Source: Acidobacteriota bacterium (lineage in GTDB: Bacteria; Acidobacteriota; Blastocatellia; Pyrinomonadales; Pyrinomonadaceae). From it: a stretch of DNA of 64,000 bases. The stretch lies in the NCBI GenBank assembly GCA_016703965.1, contig JADJBB010000005.1, positions 1,471 to 65,470 on the forward strand. Direction: 5' to 3'. Positions 3,094 through 25,865 of this stretch are shown piece by piece (within the stretch, counting starts at the first letter, position 1; each line of letters starts with the position of its first letter). The notes under the pieces are model-generated. The model had not been told where the DNA came from. It searched no databases and saw only the letters and a program-made list of their open reading frames with translations. Position numbers and translations under genes: made by a program.

Positions 3094-3675
3094 TCAGATA
3101 TCCCTTTCCGCGAGCTTTCGGATAGTCCGGATCGTGGTCTCGAGCGAAAGCCCTGCCATCTCAGCTATATCTTGCCGTCGATGGGTGATCTTCTTAACTT
3201 CGCCCGCATTCATTTCACCCGTAAGCCTCAAAATAATGCTCGCAACACGCTGCTCGGCGGATGGCGTGGCCAAAATCTGAACGGTATCGGCACGGTCACG
3301 GAGAATGCCGCACATTCGGTTAAGCACCAGGGAAGAAAATTCGGACGATGATTCCATTAAAGCAAGAAACTCACCCCGCGGGACCATTAGAAGCGAGCTG
3401 TTCTCGATTGCAACGGCTGTTGCGGGAAATCGCTTTCCGTCCATCGCCGGCGGAATTGCGAATATCTCGCCAGCCTGAAACGTGCCAATGATGATCTCCT
3501 TACCCGCCTCAGGATAGCGAACCATTTTGATCTTTCCAGCCAATATGATCGGTAAAAATGTGGCCTGATCACCCTCGAAAAAAACGTGCTCGCCGCCACC
3601 GAACGAACGTCTGCGTCCAATAGCAAAGAGACCTTCTGTTAGTTCGGCACTAAAATGGTCGGATATTTGACTCAT
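3094..3675 (-). CDS. Crp/Fnr family transcriptional regulator
   Basis: cNMP-binding beta-roll (FFEGDQATFLPIILAGKIKMVRYPEAGKEIIIGTFQAGEIF) plus a C-terminal HTH (RRQDIAEMAGLSLETTIRTIRKL). I prefer the ATG at 3675 over the TTG at 3705. The gene is divergent from the nitrate operon. Confidence 0.8.
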   Translation of the reverse strand: MSQISDHFSAELTEGLFAIGRRRSFGGGEHVFFEGDQATFLPIILAGKIKMVRYPEAGKEIIIGTFQAGEIFAIPPAMDGKRFPATAVAIENSSLLMVPRGEFLALMESSSEFSSLVLNRMCGILRDRADTVQILATPSAEQRVASIILRLTGEMNAGEVKKITHRRQDIAEMAGLSLETTIRTIRKLAERDI

Positions 3676-4040
3676 GAACGTATGAAGCCCCCCAGCGATT
3701 CCCAAAACAATAGTTACATTTCATGAGCCAAATCATAAATCGAACGGCCGGAATTTGATATTTAATAAGGGAGCACGAGGGGACTCACATGAAGTATTTT
3801 CTCCGTACATTCTTACTAACAGGAAATTCGACTGTGATCTATCCCGTTTTCGAAGGGCCTTTTACTCATTCTTACATTACTCGCTATCGATCCGGATCTT
3901 CTGTGACCGCTAGTTTTAACGCGGCCTATCCGCATAAGTACGCTCACTTGTATTTTCGCCTGTAACGTTTCGAATATATGATAACTATCTAAGCCCAAGG
4001 AATTGCTCATTAGTTGTACGCACCATATTCTCTTTTAGGT

Positions 4041-4056
4041 TGGCACTCATTTTGCA
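4041..4056 (+). promoter_or_regulatory. sigma-54 (RpoN) -24/-12 promoter upstream of the nitrate operon
   Basis: TGGCAC-tcatt-TTGCA at 4041-4056 is an exact match to the TGGCAC-N5-TTGC(A/T) consensus (GG-N10-GC spacing). It ends 32 nt upstream of the ATG at 4089. Confidence 0.55.
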
Positions 4057-4088
4057 GACGACAGATGGTTGCCCTATAGAAAAAACGA

Positions 4089-5177
4089 ATGCCCATCGAG
4101 ATCACCAAGCCAGCTACTTCGATTAATTATCGCAACCCGACCTTGATCGGGCTCGGGGCATCAATGGCTCTGACGGCACTTGTTATTGTCGGTTCGCGAA
4201 ATCTTGAGCATTTCGATTCGGCGCTATTCGGATATCTGATCGCAAGTATCGTCGCGATCGGTGCGATTTTTTTCCGCTATGCACTTTGGCTTCAGCGTCC
4301 GGCGACGCGAGCATATTTTTCTAGAGGGTTGAAGCTATTTTTCCAGCGAAAGAAATTTGCACGCAACACACTAGACGCTACAAAAACGGTAGGCATCAAT
4401 ATGCTCGCCCAGAAGTTTATCTTCAAACGGGCCAAATCAAGATGGCTGATGCATTTTCTGATCATGTGGGGCTGTATTTTGTCAGCGGCCATCACATTCC
4501 CGCTGGTATGGGGCTGGATACACTTCAAACTTGAGAGCGAAACAGGCTACAAGGCCTACGTATTCGGCTTTCCAATGCAATCGATGGACGTCCACAGCGT
4601 ACTGGCATTTTTCACGTTCAAGGCTCTCAATTTCACGGCTCTCATGGTGCTCGCGGGTTGTGCTATTGCGATCCATCGCCGCTTAAAAGACCGCGGAGCA
4701 ATAGCGGTCCAGCAATTTCTTTTGGATTTTGTTCCCCATCTTTTGTTGATCTCGATCTGCGTTTCGGGACTTATGTTAACGGCATCGAGTACATATTTCG
4801 GTGGGTATATGTACTCGTTCATTGCCCTGACCCATCAAGCGATAGTGATAATGACACTATTCTTCCTGCCGTTTGGCAAGCTATTTCATATTGTTCAGCG
4901 TCCGGCGTCGATCGGCGTTGAGCTATATCAACAGCGAGCGAAAGAAATGGAGCAGGCAAAATGTCGGCGGTGCGGCGTAGAATTCGCGTCTGTTATGTGG
5001 CTCGGCGATCTGAAGAGCGTCGTCGAAAAAGTCGGGTTTGACTACACAATGGAAAATGGTGAGAAGTTGCAGGATTATTGTCCGCGTTGCAAACGTGTAA
5101 TCCGGGGCCTTGCATACTCCGTCCTAATGGATCGCCCCGATAAGGTCTTTCACGGCTCACGCTCCGGCACCGAATAG
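4089..5177 (+). CDS. NarI/DsrM/HdrE-family membrane (di-heme b type) subunit with C-terminal Cys4 ribbon
   Basis: 362 aa, multi-pass membrane protein with His in TM helices (WLMHFLIMWG, VPHLLL, LTHQAIV). It carries the family-typical C-terminal TM motif LPFGKLFHIV. An extra cytoplasmic tail has CRRCG...CPRCK. Confidence 0.6.
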   Translation: MPIEITKPATSINYRNPTLIGLGASMALTALVIVGSRNLEHFDSALFGYLIASIVAIGAIFFRYALWLQRPATRAYFSRGLKLFFQRKKFARNTLDATKTVGINMLAQKFIFKRAKSRWLMHFLIMWGCILSAAITFPLVWGWIHFKLESETGYKAYVFGFPMQSMDVHSVLAFFTFKALNFTALMVLAGCAIAIHRRLKDRGAIAVQQFLLDFVPHLLLISICVSGLMLTASSTYFGGYMYSFIALTHQAIVIMTLFFLPFGKLFHIVQRPASIGVELYQQRAKEMEQAKCRRCGVEFASVMWLGDLKSVVEKVGFDYTMENGEKLQDYCPRCKRVIRGLAYSVLMDRPDKVFHGSRSGTE

Positions 5178-5183
5178 CAAATA

Positions 5184-7415
5184 ATGTCAAAAGTTGAGAA
5201 TCTCGCAAGTATCATTGATCGTTTCGGCCCTCATTTGCACGATGAGCCTATAGGCGGTTGGAGCGCCGAACGAAAAGTCGACAAGATGGTGCCCACCCAC
5301 TGTCCGTATTGCGGAATGCAGTGTGGCATGAATCTGCTGGTTGAAAAGAATCATGTTGTCGGCGTAGAACCGCGTTACGATTTTCCGGTAAACGAGGGCC
5401 GATTGTGTCCAAAGGGAGTGACGGCGTATCTACAGACACATCATCCCGATCGGCTGGAATACCCGCTGATAAAACAAAATGGCAATTTCGAGCGAGCGAG
5501 CTGGGACGAGGCTCTCGATCTGATCGTGGCGAAATTTAAGGGGCTGCAGGAAAAATACGGAAAGGATTCAATCGCTGTTTATTCAGGCTCGTCGCTGACG
5601 ACCGAAAAGACATATCTCGTCGGTAAATTCGCCCGCCTTGGTTTGCAGACCAGATACATTGATTACAATGGACGACTTTGCATGGCGTCCGCTGCAGGCG
5701 GCAATAACAAGGCGTTCGGCATCGACCGGGCGGCAAATCCATGGAGCGATATACCGCACGCCGAGGTTCTGATAATCGCCGGAGCAAACTGTGCTGAAAC
5801 GTTTCCCATCCTTAACGGATTCCTTTGGAAACAACGTGATAACGGCGGCGTCTGGATCGTAATCGATCCCCGCGAGACCGCGACAGCTCGTCAAGGCGAT
5901 CTGCATTTACAGCTCAAGCCCGGAACGGATGTGGCCGTTGCGAATGGCATCTTGAATGTCCTGATCAATGAGAACCTCATCGATCAGGCGTTTATCGACA
6001 GCCGCACTAATGACTGGGAAGCGGCCAGGGCGGCGGCATTGAATTATCCACCCGATGTCGCTTCAGAGATCTCCGGTGTCCCGGCGGGGAAGATCATTCA
6101 GGCCGCTCGCCTCTACGGTCGTGCAAAGACCGGAATGATCATGCATGCCCGCGGCATCGAGCATCACTCGAACGGGACGGAGAACGTGCTGAGTTATATC
6201 AATATCGCACTTGCGACCGGTAAGATCGGCTCGGAAGGCCGCGGCTACGGCACGATCACCGGTCAGGGCAACGGCCAGGGCGGCCGTGAGCATGGACAGA
6301 AGGCCGACCAACTTCCGGGCTATCGGTCGATGCTTAATCCTGAACATCGGAAGTACATTGCCGAGGTTTGGGGGATCGACGAATCTGAAATGCCTGAACC
6401 TGGCGTATCCGCCGTCGAGCTGTTTAACAAAATGCGGGAAGGCGAGATCAAAGGCCTTCTCTCGATATGCAGCAACATGATGGTCTCGCTGCCGGATACC
6501 AATCAGGTGCGGAAGTCGCTCGAGGGACTCGAATTTAACGTCTGCATCGACTTCTTTATGTCCGAGAGCGCCCGTTATGCCGACGTTGTCCTCCCCGGTA
6601 CAACATGGTCCGAAGACGAAGGTACGACCACCAGCGGCGAGGGCCGCGTGATAAAGATCAATCAAGCGATAGACCCGCCCGGTGAGGCTCGCCACGATTG
6701 GCGCGCCCTCCAGGAGATCGCTCATAGGATGGGTCGCGGAAAGTACTTTCAATTTGAGTCTCCTCGGGAGATATTTGACGAGCTCCGAGTCGCTTCCAAG
6801 GGTGGGAAGGCAGATTATTTCGGGGTCACTTACGAAAAGATCGACAAACAGGACGGCGTGTTCTGGCCATGCCCAACCGAGGAAAGCACGGGGACGCCGC
6901 GTCTTTTCGAGGAACGTTTCGCTCACGATGACGGCAAGGCAAGATTTCACGCGATCGAATATAAAGGTGCCGCAGAGAAACCCGATGAAGAGTATCCTTT
7001 GATCTTTACCAGCGGGCGTATCGTTCACCAGTATTTGTCGGGCAATCAGACCCGGCGTATTGGCTTTCTTGTTCAGCAGTGTCCGGAGCCATTCGTTGAG
7101 ATGCATCCTGAAACCGCAATGAGATACAAGATCAACGATGGCGAGCGGGTCAAGGTGATCTCGCGTCGCGGTGAAGGTATATTCCCCGCTCTGGTAGTAA
7201 AAACCATCAGGCCCGATACGATCTTTATCCCGTACCACTGGGGAGAGGAACTCGCGGCAAATCAGATAACCAACGCCGCACTCGACCCGACCTCGAAAAT
7301 ACCGGAATTCAAAGCATGTGCCGCCCGTCTCGAGAAAATACACACGAGAGAATTGCCGATACTGGGCGAGGTGCGAAAGGGAACGTCGCAAAATGAAGTG
7401 CAGAAAGGAAAATAG
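5184..7415 (+). CDS. molybdopterin (bis-MGD) oxidoreductase, Nas/NarB/Nap-like nitrate reductase catalytic subunit
   Basis: 743 aa. N-terminal 4Fe-4S motif HCPYCGMQCG...(27)...CPKG. Mo-ligand region NGRLCMASAAGGNNKAFG, as in Nap/Nas enzymes. C-terminal EFKACAARLEKI. No twin-arginine signal peptide. Confidence 0.85.
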   Translation: MSKVENLASIIDRFGPHLHDEPIGGWSAERKVDKMVPTHCPYCGMQCGMNLLVEKNHVVGVEPRYDFPVNEGRLCPKGVTAYLQTHHPDRLEYPLIKQNGNFERASWDEALDLIVAKFKGLQEKYGKDSIAVYSGSSLTTEKTYLVGKFARLGLQTRYIDYNGRLCMASAAGGNNKAFGIDRAANPWSDIPHAEVLIIAGANCAETFPILNGFLWKQRDNGGVWIVIDPRETATARQGDLHLQLKPGTDVAVANGILNVLINENLIDQAFIDSRTNDWEAARAAALNYPPDVASEISGVPAGKIIQAARLYGRAKTGMIMHARGIEHHSNGTENVLSYINIALATGKIGSEGRGYGTITGQGNGQGGREHGQKADQLPGYRSMLNPEHRKYIAEVWGIDESEMPEPGVSAVELFNKMREGEIKGLLSICSNMMVSLPDTNQVRKSLEGLEFNVCIDFFMSESARYADVVLPGTTWSEDEGTTTSGEGRVIKINQAIDPPGEARHDWRALQEIAHRMGRGKYFQFESPREIFDELRVASKGGKADYFGVTYEKIDKQDGVFWPCPTEESTGTPRLFEERFAHDDGKARFHAIEYKGAAEKPDEEYPLIFTSGRIVHQYLSGNQTRRIGFLVQQCPEPFVEMHPETAMRYKINDGERVKVISRRGEGIFPALVVKTIRPDTIFIPYHWGEELAANQITNAALDPTSKIPEFKACAARLEKIHTRELPILGEVRKGTSQNEVQKGK

Positions 7416-7418
7416 AGC

Positions 7419-8069
7419 ATGAATGAAACGATGTTTATCGATCCGCAGCGATGCATAGGGTGTAGGTCCTGTGTAGCCGCATGCCGCGAGTGTTCGACGC
7501 ATAAGGGTTACTCGATGATCTTCGTCGACTATATCGACCGCAGCGAGACGACCGCTACCATGCCCACCATATGTATGCACTGCGAAGAGCCGACTTGTGC
7601 GCTGGTTTGCCCCGCGGACGCGATCAAACAAAATGAAGATGGCGTGGTCATGTCTGCACTGAAGCCACGATGCCTCGATTGCCGCAATTGTGTGAACGCG
7701 TGCCCTTTCGGTGTGCCGAAATATAATTCCGCGATGCATCTGCAGATGAAATGCGACATGTGCTACGACCGAACGAGCGAGGGTCTCAAGCCTATGTGCG
7801 CAAGCGTCTGTCCGACAGGAGCAATTTCGTTCGGTACTTATGAACAGATCGTTCCGCTACGTAGAACTAAGCCCGTCAATGCTCACGTTTTTGGCAATCA
7901 AAGCGTTAAGACAAAAGTCTACATGATGCTGCCGACTGACGCTGATGAGGTAAGCGTCGACGGGTGCGGCGTTTTCGAGGGACAGACAGCGCTTGACGGA
8001 GCTAACGTAAGCGAAGAATCGTGGATAGATACTCAAGTGGAGGAATCCAATAAGAGCAATGAATTCTAA
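7419..8069 (+). CDS. four-cluster 4Fe-4S ferredoxin subunit (DmsB/NrfC/HybA-like)
   Basis: 216 aa with four Cys groups: [37 protein letters not shown] and CDMC...CASVCP. No signal peptide. It starts 3 nt after the catalytic subunit. Confidence 0.8.
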
Positions 8070-8645
8070 AGCATTCCATCAAGATACGATCAATAAGATA
8101 CTGGCCGGGGATAATGAAATATCGGATGAAGTAAATGTCCGCACAGCGACGGCTCCGTTTCAGGCCGAGTTCCCTTATGAACGAGACAGCGAAGCTCAGG
8201 TTACTAGGCGGGAGTTCTGCAACTTTCTCTTTTTAACATCGAGTGCACTGTTTTTGGCGCGGCTGGATTTGCAGGGAAATCTGCATATGATGCCCGATCG
8301 CCAAGAACCTTTACGCCGGCGAAGATCGATGGTGCAATGAGCATCGAACCCGGATCAGCCTTGAATTTCGCGTACCCCTCGGAGGAAGATACCGCGATCC
8401 TGATACGCGACACCGACGGCACCTATGCTGCCTTTGGGCAGAAATGCACGCATCTGTCTTGCCCGGTCTACTATTCACAAGCAAACGACCGTCTCGAATG
8501 CCCGTGTCACAATGGTGGTTTCAGCTCCAAGACAGGCGAGGTATTGTATGGCCCGCCGCCGCGTCCGCTCGACAGAATTGAGCTTGAGACGATCAATGGT
8601 GAAATTTTTGCAGTTAAAAGAGAGGTGCGTGGCAATGAAGGATAA
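8059..8645 (+). CDS. Rieske [2Fe-2S] protein with N-terminal TRREF motif and TM helix (split by one frame break)
   Basis: ORFs 8059..8340 and 8337..8645 join into one protein if one base is added in the run at 8251-8257: ...[18 protein letters not shown]|[33 protein letters not shown]... Cluster ligands are CTHLSC and CPCHNG. Confidence 0.75.
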
Positions 8646-8886
8646 CGCCAAGCCGAGAAGACCCCAGAGCCGCGGACTTGCCGCCGTTTGGCAGGCCCGG
8701 CTCGCGATGCTTGTAATGATCAACGTGGCTCAGCTCTGGATCCTATCGGCAGCGGTCGAGGCGGCTCTTGCTCAGTCGTATGGGCAGTTGGCACCGCTCG
8801 TTATTGCATCGGGAATATGCTGGCTGATCGCTCTGAGCATCTTTCTATGGTGGCGCCCCGCCGGCGAAGGAGGTAGACGCTATTAA
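8635..8886 (+). CDS. small two-TM membrane protein
   Basis: An internal ATG at 8635 in ORF 8425..8886 gives 83 aa ([42 protein letters not shown]...LIALSIFLWW). It overlaps the Rieske stop by 11 nt. Confidence 0.45.
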   Translation: MKDNAKPRRPQSRGLAAVWQARLAMLVMINVAQLWILSAAVEAALAQSYGQLAPLVIASGICWLIALSIFLWWRPAGEGGRRY

Positions 8887-9340
8887 CCTTCAATTCTTAA
8901 AACTAGCCGTTTTAGGCATCGCGGTAGGCGGAGCACTTGCGATCGGGGTTTACACCTTTGTGTACGCCAAGGGATATTCGTATCTTTCGAACGACCCTGG
9001 AAACTGCGTTAATTGCCACATCATGAATGAACAATTTGATGGTTGGCAGAAGGGTAGCCATAAGAACGTCGCGACCTGTAATGATTGTCACACGCCCCAC
9101 GATACCATTGGAAAATATATGACCAAAGCCTCGAACGGCTTTTGGCATTCCTATTATTTCACCACTAATACTTTTCATGAACCGATTCAGTTGACCGAGC
9201 GAAGCCGGCAGATCACCGAAGAATCCTGTCGGCACTGTCATCAGAATATGGTTGATGCAATAACCGTTTCATTAGATAAAAAGCATACGGATGAGGTGTC
9301 TTGTCTCAGGTGCCATCGTTCAGTGGGGCACTTACATTAA
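8882..9340 (+). CDS. nrfH: NrfH, NapC/NirT-family tetraheme cytochrome c quinol dehydrogenase
   Basis: Four CXXCH motifs (CVNCH, CNDCH, CRHCH, CLRCH). The track ORF starts at GTG 8960, which lies inside the obligatory N-terminal TM helix (LKLAVLGIAVGGALAIGVYTFVY). The frame is open from 8837 with no ATG/GTG/TTG. AAGGAGG at 8867-8873 precedes an in-frame ATT at 8882. Confidence 0.8.
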   Translation: MNLQFLKLAVLGIAVGGALAIGVYTFVYAKGYSYLSNDPGNCVNCHIMNEQFDGWQKGSHKNVATCNDCHTPHDTIGKYMTKASNGFWHSYYFTTNTFHEPIQLTERSRQITEESCRHCHQNMVDAITVSLDKKHTDEVSCLRCHRSVGHLH

Positions 9341-9376
9341 AAAATTGGCTCAGTTGTAATACTAGGAGAAGGTAGC

Positions 9377-10879
9377 ATGGAAAACGAAGAAAACACGGTG
9401 TCTAAAAAAGCACCGGCCAAATCGAGGTTGTACGGAGGAAAGGTCGTGGTATCGGTCGCGTTTCTAGCGTTTGCCGCGGCCATTCTTGGCCTTGGGCTTC
9501 TAACAAATATTCTTGAGCGGAAAAATGAGGCTAAGAACCCTTTTTTTCGTGTGGTTGAATTGACCGACGATACGACCGACCCAGAGGTCTGGGGTAAGAA
9601 TTTTCCTCTCCAGTATGATGGTTACAAAAAGACCGTCGATCAGGTACGAACTCGTTTTGGCGGCAGTGAGGCGGTTCACAAAACGCCAAAGGACTCTGAC
9701 CCGCGATCGATGGTAGCCCAGTCGCGTCTGGAAGAGGACCCTCGATTAAAAACGATGTGGGATGGCTATGCTTTTGCTGTCGACTTTCGGGAAGAGCGGG
9801 GCCACGCTTTCATGCTGGAAGACCAGATGTTTACTGAAAGGCAGAATGTTGTTAAACAGCCTGGTAGTTGTATTAATTGTCACGCCTCCGCGTACGCTGC
9901 TTACAAGAAACTCGGAGGTGGCGACATCGTAGCTGGGTTTCAAGCACTCAACAAACTGCCGTATTTTGAAGCAAAGAAAGAAATTTCACACCCGGTTGCT
10001 TGTATAGACTGCCACGATTCACAAACGATGGCATTACGAATTACCAGGCCCGCATTCATGGACGGGATAAAAGCGTATAAGGCGTCTCAAGGGATCCAAA
10101 ATTATGATGTAAATCGTGATGCAACTCGGCAGGAAATGCGGAGCTACGTCTGCGGTCAGTGCCACGTAGAATACTATTTCAAGGGGAGCCGATAAGCAGT
10201 TGACCTATCCTTGGGAAAAGGGGCTAAAAGTCGAAAACATTATGGCCTACTATGATGAGGTAAAACACAAAGATTGGTCACACAAGCAAACTGGAGCCGA
10301 AGTTCTGAAAGCTCAACACCCTGAATTTGAGATGTTCAACCAGGAATTCACTCAAGGGCAGGTGTTTCCTGTGCCGATTGTCACATGCCGTATAAACGTG
10401 AAGGGGCAATGAAAATCAGCGACCATCATGTTCGGAGCCCGCTCCTGAACATTAGCCAGAGCTGCCAAACTTGTCACAGTACGAGCGAAGCGGAGCTCAA
10501 ATTCCGGGCCGAGGCGATCCAGGAACGCACTTTCAATATGCGAAACATTGCCATGGACGCTCTTGTGCAGCTCATTGACGATCTTAGGAAAGCGAAGGAA
10601 AGGGGCGCCACAGACGAAGACCTCGCAGCGGCACGAGACTTTCAGCGGAAAGCACAGTTTTATCTTGATTTTGTCGAGGCCGAAAACTCAATGGGTTTTC
10701 ACGCTCCAGCCGAGGCGGTAAGGATCTTAGGCGAATCTGTGAATTTTACACGCCAAGGGCAACTGTCGCTTAAAAATGGAAAAACCCTGCTCGCTACAGC
10801 TGCCCGCACTGATTTCTTCATACGATACCGAGAGTGGTTTAGAGACGTTCTAAGGGACAAAGAAGGGACACGGTATTAG
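9377..10879 (+). CDS. nrfA: NrfA, pentaheme cytochrome c nitrite reductase (split into three ORFs by two frame breaks)
   Basis: ORFs 9377..10195, 10200..10412 and 10385..10879. Repairing the breaks at 10183-10187 and 10343-10344 gives ...[21 protein letters not shown]... and ...[32 protein letters not shown]... Five heme motifs: CINCH, CIDCH, CGQCH, CADCH, CQTCH. N-terminal signal anchor. Confidence 0.85.
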
Positions 10880-10934
10880 ACCATTACCTTTGTGCGGCGA
10901 TTTGTCCGCATTCTCTGCGAAGTTCTTTGCGATT

Positions 10935-12422
10935 ATGGAAACGAGCACGCCTCCTGGGGCAATCCGGATACTGATATTAAATACACTCGCGTTCACCGTA
11001 TGTTTTTCGGCGTGGATGTTAAACGGCGTTCTTGTTACTTTTCTTTCGGTAAACCAGGTCTACAAATGGACCGCCTCTGAGATCGGTTGGCTGATGGGAA
11101 TACCGGTTCTTGCAGGCTCTATTTTTCGTCTGCCTGCGGGTATGCTAACCGACAAGTTTGGTGGCAAACCAGTAATGACGGCGACCTTGCTCCTCTGTGC
11201 GGTCCCAATGTTTCTTCTTTCAAAGGTCGATTCATTCACTGGTTTCGCTCTGTGTAGTTTCGGATTTGGGCTTGTCGGTGTGAGCTTTTCGATCGGCATT
11301 GCCTACACATCGGTTTGGTTCCCGAGATCAAAACAAGGATTTGCTCTCGGTATCTTCGGAGCCGGAAATGCCGGTTCGGCCATCACCACTCTTGTAGCTC
11401 CAACATTACTCAACACGTTTACGGCAAACGGTTCGGACATCGATGCCTGGCGCAGACTGCCAATAGTCTATGCCGCGGTCCTTGCGGTTACGGGCGTAAT
11501 GTTCTTTCTGGCGACGACAAATAAGAAGCCGCTGTGGGTAGCGAAGACTTTTGCCGAACAACTCGCCCCTCTCAAGAATATTCGCGTGTGGCGTTTCGGA
11601 CTGTACTATTTTCTTGTATTTGGCTGCTTTGTCGCTTTTTCGCAATGGCTCGTCCCCTATTTTGTAAACGTCTATTATTTGCCGTTGGTTACAGCCGGTT
11701 TGCTGGCCGCACTATTCAGCTTTCCCTCAGGTGTTATCAGGGCGTTCGGCGGCTGGCTGAGCGATCGTTTTGGCGGTCGAAAAGTGATGTATGGCGTCCT
11801 CGGCCTGTCGTTACTACTATCCGCTCTGTTGATAATTCCCAAAATGGAAATATCGTCACCGGGCAAGGGGGTCGTAGCCGAACGTGATGGCGTTGTAACA
11901 GGTGTCGACGCTGATTCTGTCACTGTGGACGGCAAAAGATATCAGGTCAATGCCAAAAAGGAAACGGGCTCGGTCGAACAAGACCAAATGCTTATCTTCC
12001 CTACAAAAGAGATATGGCAGGAACCCGTTGTACAGATCGGACAGGAAGTAAAACGAAAAGAACTGCTGGCGAAAGGGACCACCAAGATCTTTTTTCAGGC
12101 CAATGTGTGGATATTCGCCGGGATCGTGATGTTTCTGGGTATTGTCTGGGGCGTCGGCAAGGCTGCTGTATACAAACACATACCTGAATATTTTCCCGAG
12201 GAAGTTGGCGTCGTTGGCGGAATGGTTGGAGTTCTGGGCGGCCTTGGCGGTTTCGTAAGCCCAATCATCTTTGGCTATTTACTTGATGAAACCGGCCTTT
12301 GGACTAGTTCGTGGATGATGATGCTCGTTCTTTCAGCGATCTGTTTGGTCTGGATGCATCGCGTGATTCAGAAAATGATGCACGAGCAGCAGCCGGATCT
12401 GATGAAGAAGATTGAGGATTAA
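10935..12422 (+). CDS. narK: MFS nitrate/nitrite transporter (NarK/NasA family) with a soluble insertion
   Basis: 12-TM MFS pattern (start METSTPPGAIRILILNTLAFTVCFSAWMLNGVL). A ~85-aa hydrophilic insert is encoded at about 11843-12100. The gene sits inside the nitrate operon. Confidence 0.75.
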   Translation: METSTPPGAIRILILNTLAFTVCFSAWMLNGVLVTFLSVNQVYKWTASEIGWLMGIPVLAGSIFRLPAGMLTDKFGGKPVMTATLLLCAVPMFLLSKVDSFTGFALCSFGFGLVGVSFSIGIAYTSVWFPRSKQGFALGIFGAGNAGSAITTLVAPTLLNTFTANGSDIDAWRRLPIVYAAVLAVTGVMFFLATTNKKPLWVAKTFAEQLAPLKNIRVWRFGLYYFLVFGCFVAFSQWLVPYFVNVYYLPLVTAGLLAALFSFPSGVIRAFGGWLSDRFGGRKVMYGVLGLSLLLSALLIIPKMEISSPGKGVVAERDGVVTGVDADSVTVDGKRYQVNAKKETGSVEQDQMLIFPTKEIWQEPVVQIGQEVKRKELLAKGTTKIFFQANVWIFAGIVMFLGIVWGVGKAAVYKHIPEYFPEEVGVVGGMVGVLGGLGGFVSPIIFGYLLDETGLWTSSWMMMLVLSAICLVWMHRVIQKMMHEQQPDLMKKIED

Positions 12423-12433
12423 GGAAGTACTTT

Positions 12434-13777
12434 ATGTCAGCCTGGTTAGAAAAATGGACCCCCGAAGATGCTGATTTTTGGGAAACAACCGGAAGCAAGA
12501 TCGCCTGGCGTACACTGATCGTCACAACGACAACGCTAACGCTTTCATTCGCGACGTGGTTTATGATGAGTGCGATCGTCGTCAAACTGCCCGGGATCGG
12601 CTTTAAATTTTCCACCTCACAGCTCTTCTGGCTTGCAGCGATGCCGGGTCTTGCCGGCGGAACGCTCCGAATGATCCATACGTTTTTACTGCCTATCTTC
12701 GGTACGCGAAAGATCATAACCATCGCCACATTTCTCAAACTGATCCCATGCATCGGACTAGGTTTGGCAATAATGAATCCGGAGACTCCGTTCTGGTTAT
12801 TTATGGTTTTGGCATTTTCTGCCGGGTTTGGAGGCGGCGACTTTTCGTCCTACATGCCCAGCACGAGCGTGTTCTTTCCAAAGCGATTGCAGGGTACGGC
12901 ATTGGGCATTCAGGCTGGAATTGGCAACTTCGGCGTAAGTCTCGCTCAATTCGCGACACCCATGATCATCACTTTTGCGATGATCGGTGGTTCGCAGACG
13001 ATCCAAACGATCGATCCAAATACGAAGGCAGTCACGGGATCAAATTCGATATGGCTGCAGAATGCAGCATTCTGGTACGTTCCCCTACTGATCATCATGG
13101 GCATCTTGGCCTGGCTGTTGTTGCGGAGCGTGCCCATTAAGGCGTCGTTCACCGAACAGCTAGATATCTTCAAAGACAAACACACCTGGTTTTGCACAGT
13201 CACTTACCTCATGACCTTCGGAGGTTTCTCCGGTCTCGCCGCAGCGTTCCCCTTGCTCATCAAAATTCTATATGGAGGCTTTCCTAACCCGCCGGATCCG
13301 CTCAAGTATGCATTTTGGGGACCTCTAATTGGATCTGCCAGTCGCGTCCTATTTGGGTTTGTAGCGGACAAGGTCGGCGGAGCGATCTTGACGACGATCT
13401 GTGGACTCGCACTAATTACAGGGACGATCACAATGATCGCGTTGGGTCTATTTGCACCGACATCGGTTGATCAGTTCGGACTATTTGTGACGCTTATGCT
13501 GACCCTCTTTTTCTTTACGGGAATGGGCAATGCCGCAACATTTCGCCAATTTCCGATCATTTTCGGACACAATCCACGACAGGCTGCGGGCGTTATAGGT
13601 TGGACGGCAGCCGTCGCTGCTTACGGCCCATTCCTGTTCTCGATGTTGATCAGCACAGTACTTTCGGCGACCGGAACCGTCGATCTATTCTTTATAGGCC
13701 TAACTGTATTTTTTGTAGTTGCCACCTTTATTAATTGGTGGTTTTACAACCGAAAAAACTGCGAGAGGCCGAGCTAA
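12434..13777 (+). CDS. narK: MFS nitrate/nitrite transporter (NarK family)
   Basis: 447 aa. N-terminus MSAWLEKWTPEDADFWETTGSKIAWRTLIVTTTTLTLSFATWFMMS is typical of NarK2-type antiporters. It starts 11 nt after the first transporter. Confidence 0.8.
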   Translation: MSAWLEKWTPEDADFWETTGSKIAWRTLIVTTTTLTLSFATWFMMSAIVVKLPGIGFKFSTSQLFWLAAMPGLAGGTLRMIHTFLLPIFGTRKIITIATFLKLIPCIGLGLAIMNPETPFWLFMVLAFSAGFGGGDFSSYMPSTSVFFPKRLQGTALGIQAGIGNFGVSLAQFATPMIITFAMIGGSQTIQTIDPNTKAVTGSNSIWLQNAAFWYVPLLIIMGILAWLLLRSVPIKASFTEQLDIFKDKHTWFCTVTYLMTFGGFSGLAAAFPLLIKILYGGFPNPPDPLKYAFWGPLIGSASRVLFGFVADKVGGAILTTICGLALITGTITMIALGLFAPTSVDQFGLFVTLMLTLFFFTGMGNAATFRQFPIIFGHNPRQAAGVIGWTAAVAAYGPFLFSMLISTVLSATGTVDLFFIGLTVFFVVATFINWWFYNRKNCERPS

Positions 13778-13879
13778 GCTTTGCTAATTTTACGGAAGTC
13801 TCTCTTGAGGCTGGTACTCCCGCCCATTCCTTAGCAGTAATAGAAGACGAGGAGACACTTTTAGAATACTTTTGAGGCA

Positions 13880-14521
13880 ATGAGATTGATCGATGGATTT
13901 GTTTTGGCAGGCGGACAAAGCCGGCGGATGGGGCAAAACAAGACGGCACTGTTGCTCGGCGGCAAGACGCTTATCGATCGTGCGGCCGATGCATTGTTTC
14001 CCGTTGCAAACACAGTTTACGCGGTCGGTAATTTAACCCACCAAATTACTTCGCTTCCGATAATTCAAGATCATCCCATTACGGGAGATACCCGCGGAGC
14101 GATCGTGGGGTTATATACAGCGCTTGTGAACGCTAAGACCGAGTGGGTAGCCGTACTCGCGTGCGACCTGCCATTTGTCACTGGCGAATTGATGACTCGG
14201 ATGGTAGACATTATGCGGCACGGCGCGGAGTTGCAAATGAACGATGTCGATGCCGTCTTCGCCGAACAGCCAGATGGACGCATTCAGCCACTTTGTGGGC
14301 TGTATCGTCGAGATAGGTGCCTGCCCGAGATTGAGAAAATGTTGTCAGATGGTGAATGGCGATTGCAGCAATTGGGGGTGCGACTCAAGACACGGGTAAT
14401 TGGGTTTTCCGAGATCAAGGATATTCAAGGCGCCGAATTCTTGTTCTTTAACATGAACACACCCGAGGAATATCGATTAGCAGTCGAAATTGAAAAGAGA
14501 TGCGACTCCAGTCCGTTTTAA
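13880..14521 (+). CDS. mobA: molybdenum cofactor guanylyltransferase
   Basis: 213 aa. N-terminal GFVLAGGQSRRMGQNK nucleotide-binding motif. It follows the Mo-enzyme operon. Confidence 0.8.
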   Translation: MRLIDGFVLAGGQSRRMGQNKTALLLGGKTLIDRAADALFPVANTVYAVGNLTHQITSLPIIQDHPITGDTRGAIVGLYTALVNAKTEWVAVLACDLPFVTGELMTRMVDIMRHGAELQMNDVDAVFAEQPDGRIQPLCGLYRRDRCLPEIEKMLSDGEWRLQQLGVRLKTRVIGFSEIKDIQGAEFLFFNMNTPEEYRLAVEIEKRCDSSPF

Positions 14522-21262: not shown

Positions 21263-24200
21263 CATGCCGGTTGGATCGATCGCTCTTATTGGATTGTTCA
21301 AGGCATATGTATATCTGTTCCAACTTTGTGGGACATCGGCGACTGCACTCGCTTGTAACGGATCTAGAGATGAAAATCGCCCTAAAGTACAGCCGAAGTA
21401 TCGAGCCTGGGCAAAATCTAGCCCACTTTCGCTGTCCCTCTCATAACCTGTAAACTTCTGCCTCGGGGCTGATACAGAGGACCAACCACTGCCGCTTGAA
21501 CGCCCCGCACCAGACGTGACTTCTTCGCCGAATGGCATAAAGTCTCGGCGTTGCGTTACTGTTGCGGAAGAGTTCGTGACGACTCTTGGGCTACCGAGAT
21601 GATCGGGCGTAAGGTACTCGGTGCCGTTTGTTGGGTCGATGACGGCGGTTAGGCCGCTGGCTCCGTAGAGATATTCTTTTGTGATCGCATTCGTAGAGCC
21701 GTTGTATTCGGCGAGAAGTTCGCCGCCGATGCCATAGACGAAGCGTGTGTTTTCGCCGACGTATTTTCTTACGCGCTTGCCTTCGCCGTCGTAGGCGTAA
21801 GCCAAAACGGTGTCGAGTTTAAGGATTTTGTTTTCGGCATCGTAGGTGTAGGCGTGGCTCGGGTCAACAGTTAGGTTGCCCGCCGCGTCGTAGCTGTAGC
21901 CGCTGGTCGTGATCCGGTTTGTTGTACTGCTGAACGTCGGGGCTGTTCCGCTTCCAACTCCCGCCGTAATGGTTCGGTTTCCATAGCGGTCGTAACCGTT
22001 CGTCTGAGTCCAGCTGGAGCCGCTTTGCTCCTGTGCGGTTGCGAGGCGATTGAGATTGTCATAGGTAAAGTCCTGCGTAAAACTCGTTCCGCCCCGCTGT
22101 AAGCGATGCTCGTGATATTTCCATTATTCGTTGAGCTGGTGCCGTAAGTATAGCTAAGCGACATCGTAGCTCCCGACGATCCAAGTTGAATACTTGTCGG
22201 CTGAAGTCTTGTGTTGTATCCAATTGCATGAACCAGCCCATTACCCAAGGTCTGGCTCGCAATTCCGCCCTGAGCTGCATACGAAACGCTCGAAACACTG
22301 GCAGCCGCAAAGCTTCCTACGTTGTACGTTACAGCACTGGTGCTCAGGGATGACATTCTGCCAGCCGCGTCGAATGAATAGCTGACCGAACGCCGGGCGG
22401 TTCCATCACCCGGATAGGTTTGGCTCGTCATACCGTTAGCCAAATCGTACGCGGCGTCTATCTCGTAGTTCGTTGTGTCAGTTCGCTGCCACTGCTCGGT
22501 TACGCGTCCCAGTTTATCGTAGGCTCGGTACGTTCCGTTCGAACTGCTCGATCCATAAGTCACCGCAACTAGTCTTCCGATGGACGAGCCTCTTGTGTAA
22601 CTCGGTGCTCCAGACGGCAGGCTTTGGCTGTCGTAGTAGAAATAAACGGGGGCCGTAACTCCGCCATCGTTCGAATAGGTGCGAGAGGTAATTCGATTTA
22701 AGTCATCGTAAGCGTAGGAAGTCGTCCAGTTACTGCCGCTGGTTGTTCGCGGATCAACTTTGCTGGTCAGATTTCCATTTGGGTCGTAGCCATAGCTGAC
22801 CGTACCCGATTCTGGATTCACCGCCTGTGTAAGTCGGCTCAGATTGTCATAACTGAACGTTCGCGTCTGGGAGCCTTGCGAAACCGTAAGCAGATTATTT
22901 AACACGTCGTAGGTGTAATCCGTATTCACATTCAACGTGCCGCCCGAATCCGGTTCGTAGACAGTTTTCAAGCGCCCAAGAGCATCGGTTACGGATTTTC
23001 TTTGTTTGCTGGCCTGATCTGTCACGGTTACTGTGTTTCCGCTGTATGAAGTTCCAACGGACGATCCGTCGGATGTTGCGACGGCCGTTACGCGCCCCAG
23101 TGCGTCGTAAGTGTTCTCCGCGTAGCCGTATGTCGTGTCCGACGTAGTGCGAAACGGATTGTATGACCGTTTGATGCGCCCAACAGCATCATAGGTTTGC
23201 GTAGTTTTTATATAAGTCGAACTGCCCTCATATCGCCGAGTCTCGGTCGTTCGGCCAAGGCCGTCGTAGAAACTCTCCGTTTTCAAAGCATTGTCATTGT
23301 AACTCGCCAGATCGCTGGTCGTGGTTACTTTCTTGTTCGTGTCGTCATAAGCGAAAGTGGTTTGACTCTGCTCTGACTGCCCCACCGCCCGAATGATCTG
23401 CGTCGGACGGTCGAGCGATTCACTCGTCGAGTACCCGCTCGTCACTACGCCATTGACGTCCTGCCCATCGACCGGCATCCCGGTGTAGAAATCGAATTGA
23501 GAGGAGACCGTTTGGCTCAAACAGTTAGTAACGCTCGTCGCAAAGGCGTAGCTCGTCTGTGAAACGCCCGATAGCTCGGACGGAGATGTGTTAGTTGTGG
23601 CGTTTCCATTTGGCGCACCGTAGCTATCGCCATAAGCTGCCGAGGTCTCACATCCACGCGGATCGCGAATTTTCACGACGTTCCCAGCGATGTCGTATCG
23701 TTGGAAGCTTTTGACCTCGCCGGTCTCGCCTGCGGCGTTTTCATAACGCTTGATCGCAGTAGCGTTGCCTCGCGTCAGGTAGCTGGTAGTGTAGCCTGAA
23801 TCATGGCCACTGATCGACGATCTACTGGTGAGTCCCTCGTTGTAGCTGGTCGAATACTGATCGTATTCAAACTTTGTCCTCGACTTTATCGTTGAACCGG
23901 CCGAGTCACTGGAAACCCACGTCTGAGTCGGCAGATTGCGAATGTGGATCGTTCCCTGAGCCGGTGTTGCGGTCGGGGTTGGGGTCGGAGCCACGTTAAT
24001 GTAATCCGTACCGTTTACGGTCGTTGCGTAATCGGTGTGAGTTCGACGAACAAACGATCCGACTGCTCCCGACCCATAGTCGTACTCGAATACATCGGTC
24101 TGATTGTTGAATTGATCGAATCCTCGTGAACTGTCGTTTGGGTTGATAGCAGAGGTTTTCGACTTTTGGCCGTCGTCGAGAGTTGTTACGGTCTCAATGA

Positions 24201-25865
24201 GTCTGGGGTCGTAACCCGGTGCGTCGTCAGCCGTACCAGACCACCAGCTGAAGGGCGATGAAGCGGTACGCTGCTCCCAGGTATAATCCACTGTACGAAG
24301 AACGGTCGATCCGTTAGTCGCATATGCCTCTGTCTTATACTCTTTCGCCTCACGCCATTTAGTGTAGCTGTTCGCATCCGAGGTCTGACTGAATGAATAA
24401 AGAGCACTTCCGAAATACGATGATTTTTGTTTGGCAAGCAGATTGTTGCTTGCATCGCGAGTTTCGGTGACGACAGAACTTTCAGTATTACTGTTGAAAT
24501 CTGTAGGTCGTTCAATGATCAGCTTGTTCTCAAGAGTAGAGCCATCAACGTATGTTCTTCGCTCAAGAATGCGTCGATAGACTGCGTAGTCCATGTACGT
24601 CGCCGTTGCGACCACGCCGCCGTTTGTATTTCCGTATTCACCGACATCCCAGTCGTATTCTATAGCCCCGCCCGTTGGCAGATCGATCCGCGCGAGTTCG
24701 CCGTAACTTGTGTATTTGAATTGATAACTCTTTCCATTGGGAAGTATGACACCACTCTTAACCTCTGGATTGAAGTAGGTCGACGTCGAACCGTTAAGAC
24801 TCGGAAAAAGCTGCGCGTAGGTTTTCAGAGTTTGGCCAGACTTTAATACGTTCGTCAGGTTGGTTTTCGTAACAAGTATGGTTCGCGACGCTCCGCCGAA
24901 GCCTTTATAGGTTATTTTGTCGCAGAGGCCGTAGGTTCCGTCAGTATAGCCGAGAGCTATACTGACGACACGATTAAGAGAGTCCGTAACCGTGAGCGTT
25001 CCGCTGGACCCCGAGAACGTGACTTTGTTTCCGTTTCGATCCCGGATCTCGGTCAAGCTTCCGCCGACAAAAGTCCACCTGGATCCGTCCTTTAGGTACA
25101 TAATTCCGGAAGCCTCTGGAACGAAATCATCTGCGTCGGCATATGCCTCGTCAACGATGTCCGCCCCCGAAACAAAAGTCGCCGCCGAGCCGTCCGTCGT
25201 CACAAAGATCTGCCCACGGTTCTGAGCTGCTGTCGTTGGACACTGGTACATGTTACGGGTCGTATTCTTTGGCTCTCCTCCGACGCGTGAATCACGAAAC
25301 TCATATTCAGTCCCATCAGCGAGCGTTACGTTTATTCTGGACAAGGTCTTTATATAGACAGGACGGTCAGGCAAGACGTGGCTGACGCAGGTCACCGTCG
25401 CTCCGCCACCTCGTCGAATTTCGGCTCTGGCTCCCATGTATGGCGGCCGGGGATCCAGCTGTTGTAGTCGGGGTAGTTGACGATCGTGTTGTAGTCCGGA
25501 TCGACTATCTCACGTCGCACATTCCATTTCTGATCGATCTGCACTGCTAACCCGGTCGAAGCACCGCCGCGTCCTCCGACCGAGACAAGCGGCAGGCTGA
25601 AATTGAGGTTGCCGTTGTATGAGTTCACACTTTCAAAACCGCTCAACGAATACGATCCGGCGGGAGCTCCAGGGGTCAACCCGGACGGTGTTACCCCACT
25701 CAGTGCAGCCTGTGCGGACACGGACGCGGTCAGAGCGACGGAAAGTATTATCGCTACAAGAATATTTCGTGATCTGACTGACCCAGCCAAATCGGAAAAA
25801 CAGGCTGTTGACAAACTAAACATGGCACACCTCTCTTTTTCTTTACCCCTGGAGAATGAAAACAA
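20638..25865 (-). CDS. RHS/YD-repeat polymorphic toxin, copy A (Sec signal peptide; three frame breaks in this sequence)
   Basis: Pieces: 25392..25865 (signal peptide ILVAIILSVALTASVSAQA, then the N-terminal region), 21871..25437 (1188 aa), 21176..21805, and the first 200 codons of 19582..21237. Dozens of YD repeats (YTYDALGR, YSYDNLSRL, YAYDDLNRI, YAYDGEGKRV). The DPxG core end lies at about 21263-21320. Confidence 0.85.

Follow-up and report, generated by a model that had tools for sequence, protein, structure and literature searches.

Within a soil/sludge member of the Pyrinomonadaceae (Acidobacteriota), a 64,000-nucleotide stretch of contig JADJBB010000005.1, referred to below as the window, contains ten genes on the + strand, all in the same direction, which together span positions 4089–14521. 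The first five of them (4089–8886), referred to as the cassette, encode a membrane anchor, a molybdenum (Mo) subunit, a ferredoxin, a Rieske protein and a small two-helix protein. On balance, these five genes appear to code for a five-subunit membrane-bound quinol:nitrate oxidoreductase, which would resemble NarGHI and would be built around a catalytic subunit of the Nas type. The ten genes and their order had been described in the original prediction, in which the locus was read as a nitrate-to-ammonium operon, and both were recovered from the coordinates of the open reading frames (ORFs) and from their family matches in Pfam and NCBIfam profile searches. The start of the operon had been placed at 4041 and was corrected, since the first ORF opens at the ATG at 4089.

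Gene organization and reading frames of the operon

The membrane anchor (4089–5177, + strand, like all genes of the operon) is a protein of 362 amino acids with six helices, and was identified as a remote homologue of NarI; its C-terminal part is a ribbon with four cysteines, which is predicted to be cytoplasmic. After a gap of 6 nt (5177/5184) follows the gene for the Nas-type catalytic subunit (5184–7415; 743 amino acids), which contains the Pfam domains PF04879, PF00384 and PF01568 of enzymes with the molybdenum-bis(pyranopterin guanosine dinucleotide) (Mo-bisPGD) cofactor. A gap of 3 nt (7415/7419) separates it from the gene for a [4Fe4S] ferredoxin subunit with four clusters (7419–8069; 216 amino acids; Pfam Fer4_11), which is similar to DmsB, FdnH and NarH. 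The ferredoxin gene overlaps by 11 nt (8069/8059) with the gene for a membrane-anchored [2Fe2S] Rieske protein of the bc type (8059–8645; Pfam Rieske), frameshifted in the window and coding for about 195 amino acids if intact. This gene in turn overlaps by 11 nt (8645/8635) with the one for the two-helix membrane protein (8635–8886; 83 amino acids), which occupies the position held in other phyla by a DUF6755 protein, and a further overlap of 5 nt (8886/8882) leads into nrfH. The tight packing that had been noted for the first six genes is therefore real, with gaps of 6 and 3 nt and overlaps of 11, 11 and 5 nt.

For the tetrahaem quinol dehydrogenase NrfH (8882–9340), a match to TIGR03153 of 152.3 bits, above the cutoff of 134.2, and four CxxCH motifs were identified. 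The nrfH gene contains no ATG, GTG or TTG start that would include the membrane helix, the first canonical start being a GTG at 8960 which deletes the helix. The apparent start is an in-frame ATT at 8882, located 9 nt after a GGAGG sequence; in the related locus L005, an ATG is present at this position. The ATT is either a rare start codon or a base error. The pentahaem nitrite reductase gene nrfA (9377–10879) matches PF02335 across three ORFs, and the NCBIfam NrfA models remain under their cutoffs. In NrfA, each of the five haem motifs is CxxCH, with CINCH standing first where the classical active-site motif CxxCK would be expected; this holds for the window and for L005 (16918–18468). The N-terminus of NrfA is a membrane anchor, not a cleavable-looking signal.

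Two genes for NarK-family transporters of the major facilitator superfamily (MFS) follow. Transporter 1 (10935–12422; Pfam MFS_1; TIGR00886 with 186 bits, cutoff 311.7) is encoded by an ORF which opens at a TTG at 10890, with the ATG at 10935 as the likely start. It carries an insertion of about 90 residues (about MEISSPGKG...KIFFQAN), soluble-looking, strand-rich and conserved in the L005 orthologue. Transporter 2 (12434–13777) scored 265 bits with TIGR00886 and 262 bits with NarU, both under the cutoffs. The last gene (13880–14521) codes for a MobA-like molybdenum cofactor guanylyltransferase (Pfam NTP_transf_3; TIGR02665 with 106 bits, cutoff 152).

Divergent from the operon, a Crp/Fnr-type regulator (3094–3705, − strand; Pfam cNMP_binding and HTH_Crp_2) is a candidate regulator of it. 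Its ORF ends about 25–30 residues before that of the orthologue in locus L004, stopping at ...KLAERDI where L004 reads ...KLAEKGYLKVVGGRILVE..., and this shortening may be one more error of the indel type discussed below. A search for FNR boxes (TTGAT-N4-ATCAA, at most 1 mismatch) gave 5 matches against 2.8 expected, none of them in the promoter region 3706–4088, and scans of the operon for sigma-70 promoters and terminators gave counts no better than those for shuffled sequence. Further upstream, a DUF7009 protein (2561–2941, − strand) and a small cupin (1930–2340, − strand) are encoded.

The Rieske gene and nrfA had been assigned to the correct families in the original prediction, but it had been missed that both are frameshifted in the window. 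The Rieske gene is split into the ORFs 8059–8340 and 8337–8645 by a 1-nt indel in a run of T (about 8251–8255). For nrfA, the three ORFs (9377–10195, 10200–10412 and 10385–10879) cover the successive PF02335 profile positions 1–183, 191–237 and 252–382; the breaks were traced to a surplus G at 10183 and the loss of a G at 10343, and the 3′ end is changed by another indel at 10805. All breaks in the two genes sit in homopolymer runs. Relatives carry the Rieske gene as a single intact ORF, and nrfA is intact in L005. Locus L010, which is 95% identical to the window, differs from it by single-base indels at exactly 8254, 10183, 10343 and 10805, and bears its own, different indels at several sites between 8548 and 9049 (window coordinates). 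A comparable picture is seen in a 5.6-kb direct repeat elsewhere in the window (21393–27029 and 31348–36980; 99.4% identical with 20 gap positions), where the first copy contains an intact gene for 1188 amino acids (21874–25437, − strand) and the second copy of this gene (31859–35394) shows about nine frame changes. Either the repeat arose by a recent duplication and has been blurred by sequencing errors, or it was created in the assembly of a long-read contig. Contig names of the 'tig' kind, typical of long-read assemblers, are found for several of the most closely related loci.

Because L010 lacks the frameshifts of the window and has others instead, and because the second repeat copy is likewise full of frame changes, the breaks in the Rieske gene and nrfA are, as judged from these sequence comparisons, most likely consensus errors of long reads and not signs of gene decay. 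That the operon is a decaying pseudogene cluster in this genome, with the frameshifts and the ATT of nrfH as real mutations, would be in line with the three to four indels that break the frame, and the loss of one ATG, within 2.7 kb, but is highly improbable given that every indel sits in a homopolymer run, that the near-identical L010 has different ones, that the repeat in the same window and the 'tig' names point to the same type of error, and that the frames are conserved and intact away from the indels. Programmed frameshifting was ruled out for both genes, since the relatives are single-frame and L010 is without these indels.

Conservation and subunits of the five-gene cassette

A scan with the anchor protein, in which one genome per species was considered, revealed 80 loci, all from Pyrinomonadaceae or from Acidobacteriota labelled "Chloracidobacterium". 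The order anchor, Mo subunit, ferredoxin, Rieske protein and two-helix protein was kept in 59/59 related loci, these being the loci that extend for 5 kb or more past the start of the anchor gene in the downstream direction. Searching the whole library (E ≤ 0.001), the anchor family was found to comprise 1019 clusters at 50% identity, and the profile search reached proteins labelled Herpetosiphon giganteus, Planctomyces sp. SH-PL62, Phycisphaeraceae, Myxococcales and Blastocatellia. The Myxococcales-labelled protein is counted as a homologue only, its genomic context lying outside the comparison. Complete cassettes, with a small protein that scores as DUF6755, were identified in Planctomyces sp. 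SH-PL62, in H. giganteus, in a metagenome-assembled genome (MAG) of the Phycisphaeraceae (locus L088) and on an unassigned 469-kb metagenome contig (locus L089). The cassette also sits on further metagenome contigs and on megaplasmids of Deinococcus, including Deinococcus wulumuqiensis, and its first four genes were detected in Brevibacillus laterosporus. Acidobacteriota, Planctomycetota, Chloroflexota, Deinococcota and Bacillota are represented, so that the expectation of a conserved neighbourhood holds for all 59 family loci and across at least five phyla. In L088, a cupin gene is inserted between those for the anchor and the Mo subunit. The RefSeq labels of the Deinococcus cassette include no functional name: the first three genes are called "MFS transporter", "molybdopterin oxidoreductase family protein" and "4Fe-4S dicluster domain-containing protein", and the next ones "Rieske 2Fe-2S domain-containing protein", "DUF6755 family protein" and "nitrate/nitrite transporter".

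For the catalytic subunit, the sequence motifs given in the original prediction were both found, CPYCGMQCG for the FS0 cluster and RLCMASA for the Mo ligand, and the N-terminus is, as described there, without a twin-arginine motif and hence without a signal for twin-arginine translocation (Tat). NasC was the best NCBIfam model with 906 bits against an equivalog cutoff of 1100, and the formate dehydrogenase (FDH) model TIGR01591 (Fdh-alpha), with 664.8 bits, narrowly missed its cutoff of 666.25; the profile scores alone are ambiguous between the two. Far lower matches were obtained with narG (TIGR01580; 67.5 bits, cutoff 1084), with the NapA models (280–298 bits, cutoffs 904–930) and with arsenite_ox_L (187 bits, cutoff 359). 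The best matches in the PDB were formate dehydrogenases, with no Nas-named entry among the matches. However, the nearest relatives outside the cassette, at 46–50% identity, are located in nas operons of annotated plasmid and chromid records: in Paenibacillus, nirB and a "nitrate reductase" gene lie next to that for a nitrate/nitrite transporter, and in Skermanella, the order is narK, Mo enzyme, nirB and a Rieske gene (NirD).

A neighbour-joining tree (685 columns) was calculated for nine enzymes from cassettes together with six Nas enzymes encoded near nirBD or nirD; four FdhF proteins and E. coli NapA were included as well. The cassette enzymes were monophyletic in 100/100 bootstraps and adjacent to the NasC/NasA group, and the formate dehydrogenases formed a separate clade, also in 100/100. 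At the position of the Mo ligand, Cys-Met is present in all cassette, Nas and Nap sequences and Cys/Sec-His in all four formate dehydrogenases. An N-terminal extension of about 35 amino acids (consensus xGPH) is shared by the cassette enzymes and is missing in the Nas references. A formate dehydrogenase was ruled out by the Cys-Met motif and the tree, despite the PDB matches. The catalytic subunit thus appears to be of the Nas type, in a clade of its own next to NasC/NasA, and lies outside the FDH clade, as had been proposed, on the combined evidence of the best model, the relatives, the tree and the Cys-Met motif. Because of this clade and the gene context, nitrate is the best-supported substrate, a reading drawn from sequence comparison.

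The membrane anchor had been described as NarI-like. For the protein of the window, no Pfam match was obtained, including PF02665 of NarI, and a weak match to the membrane domain of QmoC was seen; distant relatives of the anchor are borderline for PF02665, the highest score being 23.5 bits (cutoff 22.9). When a profile built from 45 diverse anchors was aligned to E. coli NarI by hhalign, a probability of 94.6% (E = 6.7e-8) was obtained. In this alignment, His249 and His267 of the anchor fall on His187 and His205 of NarI with an identical spacing of 18 residues; the two NarI residues are the ligands of the distal and the proximal haem in the NarGHI structure. The description as NarI-like is accordingly upheld at the level of remote homology. 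His122, His249 and His267 are near-invariant across the family, as are Cys292, Cys295, Cys331 and Cys334, and His41 and His145 are conserved within the closer subfamily. The AlphaFold2 (AF2) model of the anchor (mean predicted local distance difference test score, pLDDT, of 84) contains six helices that span the membrane; helices 3 and 4 are connected by a loop with a three-stranded sheet, residues 68–117 form a basic, helical loop, and the four cysteines lie in a knuckle-type domain at the C-terminus. When the model was compared to the PDB with Foldseek, no match at E ≤ 0.001 was found; NarI chains were top by probability (0.82–0.90), with low TM-scores of 0.43–0.47 normalised to the target, so that this comparison gives weak support. 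The basic loop and the 4-Cys domain would be cytoplasmic, because of the positive-inside rule and the homology to NarI, and much more of the mass of the AF2 model is located on the predicted cytoplasmic side than on the outer face.

Natural full-length fusions of NarK with the anchor exist in at least two lineages (P0130, P0148 and P0160). They tie the anchor to nitrate/nitrite transport and fit a topology with the N-terminus inside. In public records, the anchor is labelled 'MFS transporter' or 'NNP family nitrate/nitrite transporter' (e.g., L083, 8917–10029) while containing no MFS domain, a label that probably spread from these fusion proteins. Apparent fusions of the anchor with the Mo subunit (P0241, P0265, P0236 and P0231), which would have placed this subunit in the cytoplasm, were left unused as artefacts of frameshifts or gene calls, because they contain out-of-frame Arg-rich stretches and an internal start.

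The ferredoxin contains neither a signal peptide nor a membrane helix, and belongs to a type found as a partner of Mo enzymes. It remained under the cutoffs of the NCBIfam models for HybA, FDH-beta and DmsB, and matched FdnH, PsrB and NarH in the PDB; with the narH model TIGR01660 it scored 47.8 bits against a cutoff of 524. Intact relatives of the Rieske protein have about 160–220 amino acids and consist of a DFPxD segment, one membrane helix and a compact Rieske domain. An invariant RR within an S/T-R-R-x-F motif precedes the helix, the cluster boxes are CTHLSC and CPCH, and the Pro loop reads GPPPRP. The features of a bc-type Rieske protein, namely a Tat signal anchor, CTHxxC and CPCH boxes and a Pro loop, are therefore all present, and the best family and PDB matches were the Rieske proteins of bc1/b6f complexes (PetC/QcrA) and AioB, all under the family cutoffs. 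Such features are shown by disulfide-containing Rieske proteins which are inserted by the Tat system at the outer face, and not by the soluble NirD/NasG kind. No gene for cytochrome c1 or f is found in the cassette, and its membrane subunit is NarI-like rather than a cytochrome b of the bc1/b6 type. From the twin-arginine motif, the membrane helix and the bc1/b6f-type boxes, the Rieske domain is predicted on the outer face, opposite the Mo and FeS subunits which would be cytoplasmic. Fusions of ferredoxin and Rieske protein were absent from the best 120 Rieske matches, all of which are stand-alone proteins of 185–206 amino acids, a result that does not inform on topology. The two-helix protein of the window is below the Pfam threshold for DUF6755, and its positional equivalents reach this family (PF20540) in Planctomyces, Herpetosiphon, Deinococcus and two other loci.

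Neighbouring genes were counted within 7 kb of the cassette in 78 related Pyrinomonadaceae loci, and the 25 most frequent families, some of them annotated, were compared. A RIC protein (ScdA_N and hemerythrin) neighbours the cassette in 55/78 loci, DUF7009 in 33, NarK in 31, a SLAC1/TehA-type channel in 26, hemerythrin in 25, the homologous Crp/Fnr regulator in 24, NrfA in 12, and NnrS-DUF1858 and MobA in 10 each. NirB/NirA-type families are not among these 25, and the neighbour families of the 78 loci include no conserved cytochrome c partner of the cassette. In other phyla, a NarK or SLAC1 gene is directly attached in six loci, and in a seventh, fragmented one (L087), a NarK-like transporter is fused to the anchor; RIC and an Rrf2 regulator are also encoded nearby, as is a cluster for a cbb3 oxidase, which in L089 lies immediately upstream of the cassette. 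RIC-type proteins occur at three of these loci (L087, L088 and L089), though not in the window. In many loci, the SLAC1/TehA-type channel takes the place of NarK directly downstream of the DUF6755 gene, for example in L078 (8000–9064), L088 (15553–16620) and L089 (13838–14869), and a possible role of this family in bacterial nitrate or nitrite transport would itself merit attention. No nrfA was present in any of the six fully read loci of other phyla, L087 being left out as too fragmented. Since NrfA is near only 12/78 loci and 0/6 of those from other phyla, the NrfHA linkage is a lineage-specific add-on outside the conserved module. The presence of RIC and NnrS suggests that the cassette is part of a nitrosative-stress regulon.

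Proposed electron path, sidedness and physiological role

In the proposed mechanism, the NarI-like anchor would take electrons from quinol on its outer face. The electrons would cross the membrane via two b haems, a distal one with His249 and a proximal one with His122 and His267, and would then pass, possibly through the cytoplasmic 4-Cys domain, to the four-cluster ferredoxin, to FS0 and to the Cys-ligated Mo-bis(molybdopterin guanine dinucleotide) (Mo-bisMGD), for which MobA would supply the guanylylated cofactor. Nitrate would enter via NarK, or via the SLAC1-type channel in other lineages, and would be reduced to nitrite in the cytoplasm. In this organism, the second NarK would export nitrite, which NrfHA would then convert to ammonium on the outer side of the membrane. 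The Rieske protein and the protein in the DUF6755 position would be constant subunits, with the Rieske domain on the outer face beside the quinol site, where it could serve as a second electron outlet or inlet. The wiring of the original prediction, with ferredoxin and Rieske centre in series between anchor and Mo subunit, is not supported in that form, given the predicted outer-face position of the Rieske domain and the cytoplasmic one of the Mo and FeS subunits. Its self-contained pathway for dissimilatory nitrate reduction to ammonium (DNRA) stands for this genome if the frameshifts are errors, but not as a general module, with NrfA in 12/78 loci. Gene identities, homologies, gene order and the clade of the catalytic subunit come directly from the sequence comparisons, whereas topology, haem binding, electron path, substrate and physiological role are deduced.

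Several observations weigh against a NarGHI-like quinol:nitrate oxidoreductase. Two genes are frameshifted in the window, and the operon would be dead here if the indels were real. Just three His residues of the anchor are near-invariant family-wide, which leaves the second axial ligand of the distal haem insecure; the anchor of the window is under the PF02665 threshold, and its Foldseek matches are non-significant by E-value. A plain NarGHI-like chain leaves the invariably present Rieske protein, and also the DUF6755 subunit, without an explanation. A Tat-motif Rieske protein beside a signal-less Mo enzyme is the arrangement of arsenite oxidase, in which the Mo subunit is co-exported. Finally, the hosts of the cassette outside the Acidobacteriota, among them Herpetosiphon, Deinococcus and planctomycetes, are mostly aerobes, and their loci contain no nrfA nearby; in those hosts, the role of the cassette may be assimilatory or mixed.

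The arsenite oxidase arrangement leads to the alternative of an outward-facing nitrate reductase, in which the Mo subunit and the ferredoxin would be co-exported on the twin-arginine signal anchor of the Rieske protein, like AioA with AioB. The electrons would then run from quinol via the anchor, the Rieske protein and the ferredoxin to Mo, similar to the pNar proposed for haloarchaea, which is linked to a Rieske protein and a cytochrome b. This would place every redox subunit in a single linear chain, and it is in agreement with the invariant S/T-R-R-x-F motif before the Rieske helix, the bc-type boxes with the disulfide cysteines, AioB among the best family and PDB matches, and the overlap of the ferredoxin and Rieske genes. 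However, NarK or SLAC1 is nearly always attached to the cassette, and NarK is even fused to the anchor; nap operons are not known to carry narK. The Mo subunit is most closely related to NasC enzymes, which are cytoplasmic, the large conserved domains of the anchor (loop 68–117 and the 4-Cys ribbon) are predicted to be cytoplasmic, and the DFPxD stretch before the RR is shared by different phyla, a conservation not usually seen in the n-region of a simple signal. An outward-facing enzyme is therefore considered unlikely, at perhaps one chance in a handful. A cytoplasmic active site is regarded as clearly the better supported overall, because of the attached NarK/SLAC1 genes, the NarK-anchor fusions, the signal-less Mo and FeS subunits, the Nas descent of the Mo subunit and the conserved cytoplasmic domains of the anchor.

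With the same enzyme and mechanism, the main role might also be nitrate assimilation driven by quinol, the nrfHA linkage being secondary in a few Pyrinomonadaceae. The catalytic subunit is sister to the assimilatory NasC/NasA, the cassettes of Herpetosiphon, Deinococcus and planctomycetes lack a nearby nrfA in hosts that are aerobes, and NrfA occurs within 7 kb in just 12/78 loci. This role is nevertheless judged rather improbable as the principal one. NirBD/NirA are not among the 25 most frequent neighbour families, the neighbours RIC, NnrS, hemerythrin, Crp/Fnr, Rrf2 and the cbb3 cluster typify low-oxygen nitrosative-stress regulons, and Deinococcus grandis has a separate classical nasA-nirBD-narK locus whose enzyme belongs to a different clade. 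A dissimilatory role is favoured because of the co-operonic nrfHA, the divergent Crp/Fnr gene, RIC and NnrS, the cbb3 cluster in L089 and the lack of a common NirB/NirA neighbour; this set of neighbours is the signature of a low-oxygen, nitrosative-stress-prone nitrate/nitrite metabolism rather than of assimilation.

As a variant of the NarGHI-like mechanism which would give the Rieske protein a function, the bc-type Rieske protein and the NarI-like cytochrome might form a quinol site similar to Qo of bc1, at which the two electrons are split. One electron of quinol would go outward via the Rieske protein to cytochromes c or to the nitrite-reducing machinery, and the other one via the b haems to cytoplasmic nitrate reduction. 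Such a bifurcation is a speculative possibility, to which we give a small share of the probability. If true, it would define a class of respiratory complex not known so far, a nitrate reductase of the 'Rieske/NarI' type with about 1000 clusters at 50% identity in several phyla, and surveys of nitrogen-cycle genes in their present form would not see such a complex as respiratory.

Very little speaks for a chain that runs in reverse, in which nitrite or another substrate would be oxidised at Mo in the cytoplasm, as in a detoxification similar to the nitrite oxidoreductase (NXR) of Nitrobacter, with electrons flowing via the ferredoxin, the b haems and a high-potential Rieske centre to outer-face cytochromes or oxidases, or for the reduction of chlorate, selenate or tellurite. 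The reverse order of Mo, FeS, haem b and Rieske centre uses all cofactors by their position across the membrane, the cassette directly follows a cbb3 oxidase cluster in L089, and SLAC1/TehA-type channels stand in for NarK in many loci; but nrfHA and two narK genes are linked in the window, the Nas clade and the Cys-Met motif are common to nitrate reductases, no cytochrome c partner is conserved, and the identified hosts are heterotrophs with no known nitrite oxidiser among them.

Nitrate reductases are sorted into the Nar, Nap, Nas and eukaryotic types, and environmental surveys assign function from these. Annotation pipelines would label the cassette as "assimilatory nasA/narB" and "MFS transporter", whereas its architecture and neighbours point to a membrane-bound, energy-conserving enzyme. 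Among Acidobacteriota MAGs from wastewater, nrfAH were reported in 23, and nar or nap together with nrfAH in 11 (PMC8100337), counts that are consistent with a nitrate reductase unseen by KEGG-based pipelines. If the cassette is present in the remaining nrfAH MAGs, it could provide such soil and sludge bacteria with the step from nitrate to nitrite that is otherwise missing from their DNRA. The cassette can further be seen as a natural experiment in the modularity of Mo enzymes, in which a bc-type Rieske protein is paired with a NarI-type cytochrome, a pairing that we did not find described. Cultured carriers are available with Deinococcus spp., Brevibacillus laterosporus, Herpetosiphon giganteus and Planctomyces sp. 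SH-PL62.

Comparison with known nitrate reductases and related enzymes

Of the respiratory systems, NarGHI is the one to which the preferred NarGHI-like reading owes its layout. Both have an anchor of the NarI family, in the cassette by remote homology and with a His pair of the last helix that aligns with NarI, a four-cluster FeS subunit, a signal-less Mo-bisPGD subunit and a linkage to NarK, and the predicted redox-loop logic is the same. In contrast, the catalytic subunit of the cassette has 743 amino acids and Cys-Met at the Mo, where NarG has about 1200 amino acids and an Asp ligand, and the FeS subunit has 216 amino acids compared to 512 in NarH. The cassette anchor consists of six helices and a 4-Cys ribbon, and a bc-type Rieske protein and the protein in the DUF6755 position are added as constant subunits. 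A narJ gene was found neither in 4089–14521 nor in the annotated part of the 25 commonest neighbour families.

Nas enzymes are soluble and receive their electrons from NAD(P)H-dependent flavoproteins, ferredoxin or flavodoxin, NasG being a soluble Rieske-type ferredoxin. The cassette enzyme is related to them as a sister clade of NasC/NasA/NarB at 46–50% identity, with Cys-Met, no Tat signal and a linkage to NarK. It differs from them in its partners: the anchor is cytochrome-b-like and lies in the membrane, the ferredoxin has four clusters, and the Rieske protein is of the bc type, membrane-anchored and equipped with a Tat motif. It also differs in the lack of a linked NirBD and in a score below the NasC equivalog cutoff. 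Neither a gene for a soluble Nas donor (NasB/NirB flavoprotein, ferredoxin or flavodoxin) nor one for an assimilatory nitrite reductase was found in the operon. The soluble NasC-NasG(Rieske)-NasB system of Paracoccus provides, with NasG/NirD, a precedent for a partner of the Rieske fold (PMC3475470). The hallmarks of Nap are absent, with no RR on the Mo subunit and no napB, napC or napGH genes in the operon.

For haloarchaea and Methanoperedens, the pNar cluster reportedly contains NarB (Rieske) and NarC (cytochrome b) as a proposed quinol-oxidising module; its catalytic subunit is of the NarG type, with its own Tat signal and outward-facing, and its cytochrome b is of the bc1 type. The cassette, by contrast, combines a Nas-type Mo enzyme that has no signal with a cytochrome of the NarI type. 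With AioAB, the cassette has in common that a signal-less Mo-bisPGD subunit is encoded beside a Rieske protein with a twin-arginine signal anchor, but AioA belongs to a clade distant from the cassette Mo enzyme. The Aio system, which oxidises its substrate, is not known to include a four-cluster ferredoxin, a membrane cytochrome or an anion transporter.

A further point of comparison is the planctomycete Lacipirellula parvula, in which a NapA-like enzyme is accompanied by an FeS subunit fused to an NrfD-like anchor and is linked to NarK (PMC6995999). There, as in the cassette, a Nap/Nas-like catalytic subunit is combined with a membrane module interacting with quinol and with NarK; the anchor, however, is NrfD-like and haem-free, a Rieske protein is missing, and the linkage is to a NAD(P)H nitrite reductase.

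The three outcomes named beforehand as speaking against a distinct enzyme were a catalytic subunit in a non-nitrate clade, genes that are not conserved as neighbours, and a match to a characterised family. None of them was observed, and no description of the cassette was found in the full-text literature searched, which leaves aside most subscription-journal papers. The modules are familiar singly, but the combination of a Nas-type enzyme, a NarI-type anchor with the 4-Cys ribbon, a bc-type Rieske protein and DUF6755 is outside the architectures described in that literature.

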